A DNA stretch of 64,000 bases from an uncultured archaeon. Lineage in GTDB: Archaea; Nanobdellota; Nanobdellia; Pacearchaeales; GW2011-AR1. Position numbers and translations under genes: made by a program. This document shows, piece by piece, positions 2,142 through 64,000 of this stretch (the first letter of the stretch is position 1; each line of letters opens with the position of its first letter). The notes beneath the pieces are model-generated. The model saw only the letters and a list, made by a program, of their open reading frames with translations. It was not told the origin of the DNA and ran no database searches. The stretch lies in contig CABMGN010000002.1 of assembly GCA_902385635.1 (NCBI GenBank), forward strand, positions 18,092-82,091. Reading direction: 5' to 3'.

Positions 2142-3056
2142 TTAGTTTTCTAAATCTTTTAAATAATTATAAGCTGCTTTAGCTGCAATCGCCCCTTGGC
2201 CGGATGCAACTACAACTTGTTTGAGTTTGTGATGTGTTATGTCTCCTGCTGCAAAAATTCCTTTTACAGAAGTACTCATTTCTTCGTCGACAATTATGTA
2301 CCCTTCTTTGTCTAACTTTACATTTAGCTCTTTCAAAAAATTTGTTAGAGGTGTTGCACCGACTTCTACAAAAATTCCATCAAGTTTTATTTCTTGTTTT
2401 TTCCCTTTCTGACTTATTTCTAGTGATTCTACTTTATCTTTTCCGTTTATTTTTGTAGGAATTGCACTGTAAATCACTTCTGCATTTTTTTTGTCTTCAA
2501 TTCTTTCTGTTGTTAACTCTTCACAGCGTAATTTTTCTCCCCTGTAAATGACATAAACCTTTTTTGCTAGGTCTGTTAGTGCTAGAGCGGAGGTTGCTGC
2601 ACAATCACTTCCCCCAATAACCCCGACTGTTTTTCCTTTGAAAAAAAACGCATCACATGTTACGCAATATGAAACTCCTTTTCCAGTAAGTTCTTGTTCG
2701 CCGGGAATGTTTAGTTTTCTTCTTTCTGTTCCTGTTGCTAGAATTAATGCTTTGCAAGAGAACTCATCTTTTTTTGTTTTTATTATAAATAAATCTTTTT
2801 CCTTTTTTACTGATTCAACATCTTTTGTCATTATTTTTATTCCTTCATACTTTTTTAACTGGTCGTAGAACTGTTTCATTAGCGCTGCTCCGTTTCCAGA
2901 GTATCCGGGCCAGTTTTCTAGAGAGAGAATTGAGTTTGCTGTTCATCCAACGTCCTTGCTTATTACTGCTGTTTTTAATCCATTCCTTATTGAGTACAAG
3001 CCTGCTGTTAGCCCCGCTGGTCCTGCACCGAGAATTATTACATCATAGGATTCCAT
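2142..3056 (-). pseudogene. trxB: thioredoxin-disulfide reductase, single reading frame interrupted by in-frame TGA at codon 38
   Basis: ATG 3056 gives MESYDVIILGAGPAGLTAGLYS...KDVG, then TGA (2945-2943). The same frame continues TANSILSLENWPGYSGNGAALMKQFY into track ORF 2142..2879, which carries the CVTC redox motif and a second GxGxxA/G fold (VGVIGGSDCA). Confidence 0.8.
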
Positions 3057-44688: not shown

Positions 44689-44709
44689 TTGTTTTTTCCT
44701 AGAGCATAT

Positions 44710-46188
44710 ATGAAAAAGAGTGTGAAGAAAACTGTTCCTAAATCTAATTATCATGCTCTTTTGAAAACACTAAATCCACATCAGCAAGCGTATATTAGTC
44801 TTGATTTGGAAGGTGCAAAAAATGGAGAATATATGTTATGTGTTTTTCATATGGTTCCGAGAAAGGGGCTTAATTCTCTACAAGCTGCGTGTGAAGTTGC
44901 TGCAGAGTCTTCTACAGGAACAAATTTCTTAGTTAAGACAGAAACACCCTTCTCTAAAAAGATGAATGCTCTTGTTTACAAACTTGATCTTCAAAAAAGT
45001 CTTGTTTGGATTGCTTACCCTTGGAGATTATTTGACCGCGGAGGGAATATTCAGAATATTTTAACTTACATTGTCGGAAATGTTTTAGGAATGAAAGAGG
45101 TTTCTGAGTTAAAACTTCTTGATGTCTGGTTTCCTCCAACAATGATTGAACAGTATGATGGTCCAAATTACACTTTAGATGATATGAGAAAGTACTTGGG
45201 GGTTTACAAAAGACCAATTCTTGGGACAATAATCAAACCAAAAATGGGCTTGACTTCTTCGGAATATGCTGAAGTTTGTTATGACTTCTGGGTTGGGGGC
45301 GGAGACTTTGTAAAGAACGACGAACCTCAAGCTAATCAAGATTTTTGTCCGTATGATAAAATGGTTAAGTATGTTAAAGAAGCAATGGACCGAGCGGTTA
45401 AAGAAACTGGAAAGAAGAAGGTTCACTCCTTTAATGTTTCTGCCTCAGATTATGAGACAATGATTCAGAGATGTGAGATGATTAAGAACGCAGGTTTTGA
45501 AAAGGGTAGTTATGCTTTTCTTATTGACGGCATTACTGCGGGGTGGATGGCTGTTCAAACTTTGAGAAGGAAGTATCCCGATGTTTTCATACACTTTCAC
45601 AGAGCAAGTCACGGGGCATATACAAGAAAAGAAAACCCTATTGGCTTTTCTGTTTTAGTTCTGTCTAAGTTCGCACGATTAGCTGGGGCTTCTGGAATTC
45701 ACACAGGAACTGCCGGAGTTGGAAAAATGGCTGGAAGTCCGGAAGAAGATATTATTGCAGCTAAAAACATTTTACAATTTGTTGCAAAGGGTCACTTTTT
45801 TGACCAGTCTTGGGGGAGGATACCTGGGAGAGATAAGGATGCAATAAAGATAGTTCACGAAGATCACGCTCATCACGTAATCTTAGAACATGATAGTTGG
45901 AGGGGAGTAAAGAAGTGCTGTCCGATAATTTCTGGGGGGTTAAACCCAACTTTGTTGAAACCATTTATTGATGTCATGGGAGGTGTTGATTTTATTACAA
46001 CCATGGGCGCAGGTTGTCATGCTCACCCGAAAGGAACACAGGCTGGAGCAAGGGCTTTAGTTCAGGCATGTGAAGCTTACCAGAAGAAAATTGACATTCA
46101 CAAGTATGCAAAGACCCATAAAGAGTTAGCCGAAGCTATTGAATTCTTTGAGAAAAAAGGAACAGAGAGAAAAGTTGAGAGTGCTTGA
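44710..46188 (+). CDS. rbcL: ribulose-1,5-bisphosphate carboxylase large subunit, archaeal form III / II-III-like
   Basis: GTIIKPKMGL, GGGDFVKNDEPQ (carbamylated Lys), HFHRASHGAY, GIHTGTAGVGKMAG (loop 6 Lys), PIISGGLNP and GAGCHAHP. ATG 44710 is preferred over the track TTG at 44689. Confidence 0.9.
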   Translation: MKKSVKKTVPKSNYHALLKTLNPHQQAYISLDLEGAKNGEYMLCVFHMVPRKGLNSLQAACEVAAESSTGTNFLVKTETPFSKKMNALVYKLDLQKSLVWIAYPWRLFDRGGNIQNILTYIVGNVLGMKEVSELKLLDVWFPPTMIEQYDGPNYTLDDMRKYLGVYKRPILGTIIKPKMGLTSSEYAEVCYDFWVGGGDFVKNDEPQANQDFCPYDKMVKYVKEAMDRAVKETGKKKVHSFNVSASDYETMIQRCEMIKNAGFEKGSYAFLIDGITAGWMAVQTLRRKYPDVFIHFHRASHGAYTRKENPIGFSVLVLSKFARLAGASGIHTGTAGVGKMAGSPEEDIIAAKNILQFVAKGHFFDQSWGRIPGRDKDAIKIVHEDHAHHVILEHDSWRGVKKCCPIISGGLNPTLLKPFIDVMGGVDFITTMGAGCHAHPKGTQAGARALVQACEAYQKKIDIHKYAKTHKELAEAIEFFEKKGTERKVESA

Positions 46189-46242
46189 AGCCGTATCAAA
46201 CATTTTTTAAACATCATTCTCCTCTATATTTTAATAAAAAAG

Positions 46243-47790
46243 ATGGCAGCAACTGTAGATCAACTTATTGGTAAAATTAATCCAAAACTCTATGCAGAAA
46301 ATGGAGCAGAGCTCTTGAAGAAGTATGGCAGCTGGGATAAGATTCCGGCTGAAGAAGTAGTACCTAAACCTGCTTCGGAACATAAGCTAACTTACGACTC
46401 TTCTGCAGATCAGTTAGAGCCAATTTACTTCTATATTTTAGATATGATGAATGATCGTGCAATGAAACCTGAGAAGCTAGTTGATAATTTTTCTTCATCA
46501 CCCGGATCAGGACATTTTGGAGAGATGGGGCAGAGAATGTCTGTAATGCAACAACAAGGTGTTAAAATTTTAGGGGATATAAATAATGTCTTAAGAAGTG
46601 TTTTAAATATAATTTATGACTTAAAGGATTTCAGAACAAGACTACAAGTTTACAAGGATTCAAAAGATAAAGATCCTGCTAGAGCCGAAGCAGCAAGACT
46701 ATCTCTAAAACAAATTTGGTTAGATAAAGTAGATATTAATAAGGGGGTTCAGGGAAATTCTAGTATTAAAGCCATGGCTCTTTCACAAGCAGGGTTTGTT
46801 ACTCTTCTCGACGCATTTTTGGCTGTAAAGGATGAAAAAGAAGTCGCTAAAATGGATCTAAACGAGAGAGTAAAAAGAATTGTTGAACAGAGAATCCAAG
46901 AATTTAATGTCTGGGTTATACAGTCTGAAATGGAATTAAATAAAAGATATGAGATAGAAAAAACTTATTTGAAAAGTCAGGTAAATAGTCTAAAGATTTA
47001 TGCGCAATGGGCAAAGCCTTACCTAGTTGCAGCACAGCAGTTACAGATGACTGATATGTCAAAGAATCCTTCTTTAGTAAAAGCATTCAATACTATCCTT
47101 CTTCAATTAACATTAATTGGAAGTAATAAAGTAGATGTTGCAGACGAAGTTATTGCAAATAATTTCCCTACTGAATTAAAAGGTATGAAGATAAAAAGAG
47201 ATTATTTTGCTTGTACGCTTATTGACTTCTCATTCCGAGGGATTCCCCAGAGAGCCTCTGCAACACAATCACATTATGTTTTCGGGGGACTTTCAGAAGT
47301 TACATTTAGAGCTTATGCTTTGAATGCTGACGAGAAAAAAGCATTAAGCAAAGAAGTTGAAACTTCGTTGGTTAGTGATGTTCTGAAACTAATTGAAGGA
47401 GCAACAACAGAAAGTTTAGCAAATTTAAAAGATGAGATCGAATATTATCTAGAAGAAAAGCCCAAAGAAGAAAAAAAGGAAGAGAAAAGTAGTTCTTCTG
47501 GAGGCAAAGGATTTGGAGGAGTAATTGCTGACTTATTTTATCCCTTTGCAGCGATGTCTGGAAGGTACGATAAAGAAGGAAGTGCGGATACTTTCTCAGA
47601 TAAAAAAAGTGGAGATAAGAAAAAAGAAGATAAGTCAATTAGATCTGATGATTATATTGAAAAAACCTTTTTGAGAAAATTTGCTGAAGACAAAGCAAAA
47701 ACAACAACCTTTGATCTATTTGAAATCTACAAAAAGACTCACGGAATGGCAAGTTTCCCTCTTAATATGAATAAGAACGATCTTAGCTAA
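46243..47790 (+). CDS. hypothetical 515-aa protein, helical, with Lys/Glu/Ser/Gly low-complexity region near the C-terminus
   Basis: Long ORF 54 nt after rbcL. It has predicted long helices (VLRSVLNIIYDLKDFRTRLQVY; SEMELNKRYEIEKTYLKSQVNSLKIYAQW). No family recognised. Confidence 0.6.
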   Translation: MAATVDQLIGKINPKLYAENGAELLKKYGSWDKIPAEEVVPKPASEHKLTYDSSADQLEPIYFYILDMMNDRAMKPEKLVDNFSSSPGSGHFGEMGQRMSVMQQQGVKILGDINNVLRSVLNIIYDLKDFRTRLQVYKDSKDKDPARAEAARLSLKQIWLDKVDINKGVQGNSSIKAMALSQAGFVTLLDAFLAVKDEKEVAKMDLNERVKRIVEQRIQEFNVWVIQSEMELNKRYEIEKTYLKSQVNSLKIYAQWAKPYLVAAQQLQMTDMSKNPSLVKAFNTILLQLTLIGSNKVDVADEVIANNFPTELKGMKIKRDYFACTLIDFSFRGIPQRASATQSHYVFGGLSEVTFRAYALNADEKKALSKEVETSLVSDVLKLIEGATTESLANLKDEIEYYLEEKPKEEKKEEKSSSSGGKGFGGVIADLFYPFAAMSGRYDKEGSADTFSDKKSGDKKKEDKSIRSDDYIEKTFLRKFAEDKAKTTTFDLFEIYKKTHGMASFPLNMNKNDLS

Positions 47791-62633: not shown

Positions 62634-64000
62634 TTAAAACTCAGTATGAAGGGCTGGGCCTGAAAAGTTCATACCTTTGTCTTTTGAATTGGCTGCAATA
62701 ACATCATCAATTCTAAGAATCATTGTAGCAACTTCTGTCGCAGAAGAAATTGCCTGGGCTTTTATCTTGTAGGGTTCAATTATATGCGCCTTGAACATGT
62801 TTTCAATCTCATTCGTAAACAAATTCAAACCCGCGTTTCTATTTCCGGAATCGTGTTTTGCCTTTAGCGAGGTTAGAACGTCAATAGGATCCAAACCGGC
62901 GTTCTCGGCAAGAGTTACTGGGATGAACTCTAGAGCAGAAGCAAACTAATCAACAGCAAGTTGTTCTCTTCCTTTCAGAGACTGGCCAAAGTATCTAAGC
63001 CTTCTTGCAAGCTCTATTTCTATCGCTCCTCCGCCCGCAACAACCATACCTGTCTTTAGTGAAGATAAAACATCTCCAAGACCATCACGAATGGCTCTTT
63101 CAATTTCATCCATTACATGACTAGACCCACCATGAATCAAGATTGTAAGTGCTTTTGGATTCTGACATCCCCGTATGTAAGTCATTGAATCATTTCCATT
63201 TCCAACCTCTTCAACAATCTGAGCTTCTCCAAGTTCTTTTTGTGTTAGTTCATTGAGATTACTAACTATTTTTCCCCCCGTAGCTTTTGATATCTTTTCT
63301 AAGTCTAATTTCGCAACTCTTCTACAGGCGTATATTCTCTCTTTAGAAAGAAGGTACTGTGCGAATTCATCTATTCCTTTCTGACAGAAGACAACATTTG
63401 CTCCAGAATGTTTTATCTTATTGATCATCTCTCTAATCTGGCGTTCTTCTTGGTCTAAGAAGTTTTGTAATTGTTCGGGGGTTGAGATAGAAATCTTAGT
63501 ATCTATTTCAGGATTTTTTATCTCAAGAGGGAAATCAAGAAGAGCAATTTTAGAAGAATTTACAGAAAGAGGCATATCTGAAGAAACTTTTTCTTTATCT
63601 AAAACAATACCTGAAATTAATTCCGTATCTTCAATCCCATCTCCTTTTGCTTTTTCTATTTTAATATCAGTTAGATCGTACTTTCCTTCTTGTTCTATTT
63701 GCTTTACTGCCTTCACAATTATACCTGCAAACTTTTCTTTAGAAGACTCTGCACACTTCCCAGTCATTGCAGTCATTGCTATCTGTTTTAGTATAGACTC
63801 GTTTTCTGAAGTGATTTTGATTGAAAGTTGTTTAAGGAATTCCTGTGCTTTATCTGCTGCGATTCTATACCCCTTTGTAATGGCTGTCGGATGTATCTTC
63901 TGATCAAGAAGTTTTTCTGCATTTTCCAGAAGTTTTCCTGCAAGCATTACTGCAGAAGTTGTTCCGTCCCCGACTTCAGACTCCTGAGTTCTAGCAATTT
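62634..64000 (-). pseudogene. ths: thermosome (group II chaperonin) subunit, 5' end off window, single frame interrupted by in-frame TAG
   Basis: The upstream part reads EVGDGTTSAVMLAG...VAGGGAIEIELA...GREQLAVD. TAG follows at 62948-62946. The same frame continues [24 protein letters not shown]...ILRIDDVIA. The track splits it into 62946..63947 and 62634..62894. Confidence 0.85.

Follow-up and report, generated by a model that had tools for sequence, protein, structure and literature searches.

The low-Mr thioredoxin reductase (TrxR) gene, trxB, of the archaeal assembly studied here (G000: 594 kb in 9 contigs, ~35% G+C, estimated completeness 78.6%; of the Pacearchaeota/Nanoarchaeota-type DPANN group, judging by its closest database proteins) is broken by an in-frame TGA that is real in the deposited sequence and most likely does not represent a biological mechanism. 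The stop is probably a G>T substitution private to G000 that does not represent the working genotype, being either a consensus error or a minority or unfixed allele, and we infer such a technical or non-fixed cause for a gene that otherwise looks like a normal TrxR. This explanation is favored over the alternatives by three features, namely that several single-copy essential genes are affected, that the lesions are purely of the G>T type, and that trxB gives no sign of relaxed selection.

Structure of the trxB frame

The DNA analysed, referred to below as the window, is a stretch of 64,000 nucleotides (G000:C2:18092-82091). The first-pass annotation had described a minus-strand trxB opening at ATG 3056, meeting a TGA after 37 codons and continuing in an unshifted frame into the open reading frame (ORF) with CVTC. 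Translation of the window reproduced this arrangement, with the TGA as the sole internal stop and no frameshift in the frame (Table 1). The first ATG after the TGA is codon 60, which is the start of the called 245-aa ORF (2142..2879) carrying CVTC, and the product called for trxB in G000 is accordingly a truncated form.

When the TGA was read through, residues 4-299 of the product aligned to positions 1-300 of the 300 positions of the TIGR01292 profile (thioredoxin-disulfide reductase), and the score of 337.1 bits lay 6 bits below the curated equivalog cut-off of 343.45 with the full profile aligned. Solved TrxRs in the PDB matched the same product at E ~1e-63 (8e-64), an example being 3F8P. 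TIGR01292 TrxRs (Sulfolobus solfataricus TrxB-3, PDB 3F8P; E. coli TrxB, PDB 1TDE) are collinear with it over the full length and share with it GAGPAG, GG(T/Q), ENWPG, CVTC, the second dinucleotide fold and the C-terminal GD motif. GAGPAG (residues 10-15) and CVTC (residues 131-134) were both invariant in the homolog alignment. The gene looks like an ordinary low-Mr TrxR, which differs from the TIGR01292 enzymes in the slightly low score and in the interruption of its frame at codon 38.

The position of the stop within the protein, placed earlier at the second Gly of GGQ, was confirmed by the alignment of PDB TrxRs, in which this residue stands opposite the TGA, and Gly was invariant in that column among 119 homologs. 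The residue is a Gly in the backbone of the FAD pocket and not a redox site. The residues flanking the stop read DVG-x-TANSILSLENWPGYSGNGAALMK, where x is the TGA codon, and read-through with Gly at the TGA would give DVG-G-TANSILSLENWPGY. No second TrxR was found in the G000 assembly, so that the gene is still the only visible TrxR, as it had been taken to be, and the thioredoxin gene of G000 is present and intact.

The heptapeptide YRGEKLR, conserved in Pacearchaeota orthologs, occupies what is presumably the position of the NADPH-phosphate-binding HRRxxxR motif in E. coli TrxB. With YRGEKLR instead of HRRxxxR, this TrxR may have a different reductant preference.

Table 1. Coordinates of trxB, of the other interrupted genes and of two intron-containing tRNAs. 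Plain numbers are window positions; positions with a contig prefix refer to contigs of G000.
Feature	Position	Strand	Stop or change	Remarks
trxB, low-Mr thioredoxin reductase, complete frame	2142..3056	minus		ATG 3056-3054 to TAA 2144-2142; 304 codons plus TAA
N-terminal trxB fragment	2946..3056	minus		37 codons; FAD-binding GAGPAG; from translation
In-frame stop, codon 38 of trxB	2943..2945 (C2:21034)	minus	TGA	Gly (GGA or GGT) in relatives; from DNA alignment
Downstream part of trxB	2142..2942	minus		ENWPG; redox-active CVTC; second dinucleotide fold GGSDCA; C-terminal FAD GD motif
YRGEKLR of TrxR, residues ~171-177	2540-2560	minus		
Thermosome gene	62634..64000, running past window end; full gene C2:80728-82332	minus		sole copy
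In-frame stop in thermosome	62948-62946 (C2:81037)	minus	TAG	Glu in 120/120 homologs; GAG>TAG
In-frame stop in gyrA	C1:11341	plus	TAA	Glu of catalytic RYTE motif; GAA>TAA; outside window
In-frame stop in DisA-like gene (diadenylate cyclase type)	C8:91134-91136	minus	TAA	variable position (E, E, D, S, K, Q); outside window
In-frame stop in SpoIIM-like membrane protein gene (PF01944)	C8:254304-254306	minus	TGA	Gly in four closest homologs (88-72% identity); outside window
AglH/GT4-like glycosyl-1-phosphate transferase gene, adjoining AglB	C8:250280-251267	minus	two frameshifts	
tRNA-Ile(UAU) with intron	C4:43419-43541	minus		48-nt intron; outside window
tRNA-Tyr(GUA) with intron	C2:85128-85287	plus		long intron; outside window

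The stop position in related genomes

Full-length intact trxB orthologs were found by protein search at 94%, 90% and 83% protein identity, and these relatives carry GGT, GGA and Gly, respectively, at the stop position (GGT in L013, GGA in L014 and TGA in G000 in the alignment of contig DNA). Since the relatives have GGA or GGT and the Gly is invariant, a single G>T substitution that is private to G000 (GGA>TGA) accounts for the lesion, which supports the single GGA-to-TGA change suggested at the outset. A match was present in 36 related genomes, and six-frame reading showed trxB to be open in 35 of them. The exception, G011, belongs to another genus of the same family; its TGA replaces another Gly, that of ENYPGF (L030, G011:C20:117-1031), and is an independent event of the same GGN>TGA kind.

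Programmed read-through would be expected to go with a stop conserved at the same site, but neither the relatives with 94%, 90% or 83% identity nor the 35 genomes with an open frame carry it; the alignment of sister orthologs, proposed in the first-pass annotation as a check, returned Gly codons where a conserved stop had been considered. Contigs of the same strain were sought in metagenome and genome contig collections, in which records of G000 itself may be hidden, by the exact products of the two neighbouring genes and by a 36-nt pattern in which the variable base was set to N, and none was retrieved by either route.

Nonsense lesions across the assembly

G000 was compared in six frames with the ORFs of two genomes of the same family (all of G024 and nearly all of G020), covering ~300 gene-sized loci in 268 kb; the whole genomes used for this comparison have ~60% identity to G000. 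Long, best-frame alignments were kept in the tblastn screen and shadow-frame alignments were removed. Mechanical screening for stops between open frames gave 246 events, which were mostly noise, and credible in-frame stops were found in five genes of the ~300, with all three stop codons represented (Table 1). No further decay was seen in the stop-bearing genes.

The thermosome had been credited earlier with the same kind of lesion as trxB. An in-frame stop is indeed present there, although the codon is TAG and not TGA. In the rest of the family a thermosome match was obtained in 102 genomes, and among these an in-frame stop occurred only in G093 and G052, while in a few others the gene was split over two matches. 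With stops in 2/102 matches, such lesions are sporadic in these MAGs rather than features of a lineage.

Further changes accompany the lesions in gyrA and in the SpoIIM-like gene. At C1:11335-11346 (plus strand), gyrA reads AAMRYR(stop)SKL, compared with AAMRYTE(A/V)KL in relatives, so that the TAA stands beside Thr>Arg and Ala/Val>Ser and three base changes fall within 7 nt. The TGA of the SpoIIM-like gene lies 26 codons short of the gene end, at a position with Glu in the more distant homologs, and this gene has a second change, Ala>Asp (GCC>GAC, C>A), at an otherwise invariant column. The AglH-like gene is the sole frameshifted gene of the ~300 and contains two -1 homopolymer deletions, GGG>GG near 250842 and TTTT>TTT near 250515. 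Four lesions are clustered within ~4.5 kb (C8:250.5-255 kb).

Some interruptions elsewhere in the genome were rejected as lesions. A TAG separates Hef helicase from XPF nuclease at G000:C8:174128-174130 (plus strand, outside the window; TAG-AAA-ATG), and since the stop is followed by an ATG and the ORFs are separate in both related genomes too, Hef/XPF is a natural two-gene arrangement. Tandem ORFs of ~500 aa lie in the same frame at window positions 44689-47790 (plus strand) with a TGA and 54 nt between them; read-through was rejected here as well and the locus was assigned to two genes, since the orthologs end at the TGA.

G>T signature of the lesions

The ancestral residues Gly, Gly, Glu and Glu imply that all four lesions that could be polarised are G>T changes at codon position 1 (GGA>TGA twice, GAG>TAG and GAA>TAA), and the fifth, in the DisA-like gene, is compatible with GAA>TAA. 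With the codon usage of G000, 22.9% of all single-base changes that can create a stop are G>T if rates are uniform, and 7.5% if they are weighted by the trxB substitution spectrum, so that finding G>T in 4/4 lesions has p ~0.003 and ~3e-5, respectively. The oxidised-guanine class (G>T, C>A) thus takes in every polarised lesion together with the C>A missense change of the SpoIIM-like gene.

In sequencing libraries, oxidised guanine is known to leave a G>T signature (Costello et al. 2013, PMC3616734), and all four polarised lesions of G000 are likewise G>T. Library artefacts of the 8-oxoG type normally stay at low frequency in reads and reach a consensus only at low template number or coverage, whereas the G000 lesions are in the consensus. 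Candidates for 8-oxoG repair in G000 comprise one HhH-GPD gene, a weak AGOG-like match and 10 Nudix genes.

Selection on trxB and origin of the stop

trxB was compared codon by codon with three close orthologs. The G000 lineage has 31 private nucleotide changes in trxB, of which 24 are synonymous and 7 are not, and intact orthologs have synonymous/non-synonymous counts of 26/13 and 25/8. Because the 24/7 ratio resembles those of the intact orthologs, there is no sign of relaxed selection in trxB, indicating that its stop either arose extremely recently or is not real. Transitions make up 26 of the 31 private changes (84%), and no private change other than the nonsense one is G>T.

If the TGA does not represent the working genotype, GGA>TGA would have struck the second, invariant Gly of the FAD-site motif GG(Q/T) in an otherwise normal TrxR gene, and no special decoding would be involved. 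A damaged template G could have been read as T and ended up in the consensus, or a minority or unfixed nonsense allele could have been captured by the assembler, and trxB would be one of five genes hit by nonsense substitutions of this kind at scattered places in the assembly. A cell with all knock-outs at once is implausible, since thermosome and trxB are single-copy and the gyrA stop lies inside the catalytic RYTE. The lesions share G>T, a class almost absent from the fixed substitutions of the lineage, which fits sequence that does not stem from a working genotype. Nevertheless, several observations speak against an error. With lengths of up to 263 kb, the contigs suggest decent coverage, at which random read errors seldom make it into the consensus. 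The SpoIIM-like and AglH-like genes each carry two lesions, as real pseudogenes also do. The shearing artefact favors a CCG context, and the G>T contexts in the G000 lesions are not CCG.

It is conceivable, although in our judgement rather unlikely, that the stop reflects genuine and very recent pseudogenisation, in which the dominant genotype would have undergone GGA>TGA and lost TrxR in a burst of in-vivo G:C>T:A mutations, for example because 8-oxoG repair had failed in a symbiont population that passed through a bottleneck. The TGA stands in the deposited consensus, and unrepaired 8-oxoG likewise leaves a G:C>T:A signature in vivo; yet the fixed substitutions of this lineage are dominated by transitions, with no other G>T in trxB, and with an HhH-GPD glycosylase and 10 Nudix genes the defence against oxidised guanine is not obviously missing. 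Other genes are broken too, one of them through two homopolymer frameshifts, but the joint loss of the only thermosome, the gyrA catalytic motif and the only TrxR should be lethal, and thioredoxin has been kept. Lesions also recur in these MAGs, as seen in the thermosome (~2/102 family genomes) and in the TGA of the G011 trxB homolog, whereas trxB itself shows no relaxed constraint.

Decoding of TGA

TGA is not reassigned in G000, as supported by its use as a terminator, the release factor, the tRNAs and the relatives. Among 172 gene ends that match the C-terminus of a G020 or G024 ortholog within 5 codons, TAA terminates 121, TGA 28 and TAG 23, and TGA also ends 20 of the 68 long ORFs of the window, bearing out the earlier statement that it serves as a genuine terminator. 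The single aRF1 of G000 is intact and has the canonical NIKS, YxCxxxF and GGQ motifs. Scanning for a tRNA with a UCA anticodon had been recommended in the first-pass annotation; neither UCA nor CUA or UUA anticodons occurred among the 34 tRNAs identified by ARAGORN and Infernal in the 78.6% complete assembly. The tRNAs include intron-containing tRNA-Ile(UAU) and tRNA-Tyr(GUA), which were missed by the ARAGORN run without introns.

Recoding or read-through, with UGA read as Gly (as in code 25) or suppressed by a near-cognate tRNA and full-length TrxR being made, is therefore very improbable. Both in-frame TGAs of G000 and that of G011 fall at positions with Gly in the closest relatives, but a G>T change can produce TGA from no codon other than GGA, so that Gly would be expected at in-frame TGAs anyway. 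trxB is otherwise intact and under purifying selection, as a recoded gene would be; however, its stop is missing from relatives at 83-94% identity, in-frame TGAs number just 2 in ~300 genes, and the in-frame TAG and TAA codons in other core genes would need a separate explanation, meaning that no single codon reassignment fits. The coincidence of in-frame TGAs with the Gly of relatives is also the only likeness to code 25 of Gracilibacteria and Absconditabacteria, in which UGA encodes Gly. Unlike those systems, G000 uses TGA as a frequent terminator, has no tRNA-Gly(UCA), retains a canonical release factor and has only those two sites, and its closest relatives are without the TGA. Every tested defining feature of a reassigned code failed. 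Context-dependent read-through, raised earlier as one possible cause of the stop, is likewise not supported, given the absence of the stop from close relatives, the termination of conserved genes at TGA, the canonical aRF1, and the lack of suppressor or selenocysteine tRNAs and of RNA structure in the searches made here.

The five G>T stops could also be real and fixed while full-length TrxR, thermosome and GyrA are still made, either by leaky near-cognate decoding through first-base misreading (UGA as Gly, UAA and UAG as Glu) or in a polyploid cell with intact copies, and we give this combination hardly any credence. The chance of selenocysteine insertion at the trxB UGA is negligible: UGA is the selenocysteine codon and some disulfide reductases are selenoproteins, but the best tRNA-Sec match in the assembly (RF01852) scored 35.9 bits against a cut-off of 47 and corresponds to an ordinary tRNA, the 120 nt that surround and follow the stop folded no better than shuffled sequences (z = +1.1), the Rfam elements in the window were tRNAs only with none at the stop, and the homologs carry Gly, not Cys, at this non-redox position.

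Implications

Caution is called for in the use of G000, whose conserved genes contain no fewer than five nonsense substitutions along with two homopolymer frameshifts. Gene calls, inferences of missing functions and screens for code reassignment based on G000 should allow for such lesions. The uniform G>T nonsense class can serve as a fingerprint by which damage or consensus errors in MAGs are distinguished from evolutionary pseudogenes. Should the lesions instead prove real and fixed, such tolerance of stop codons in the essential genes of a DPANN archaeon would be surprising.
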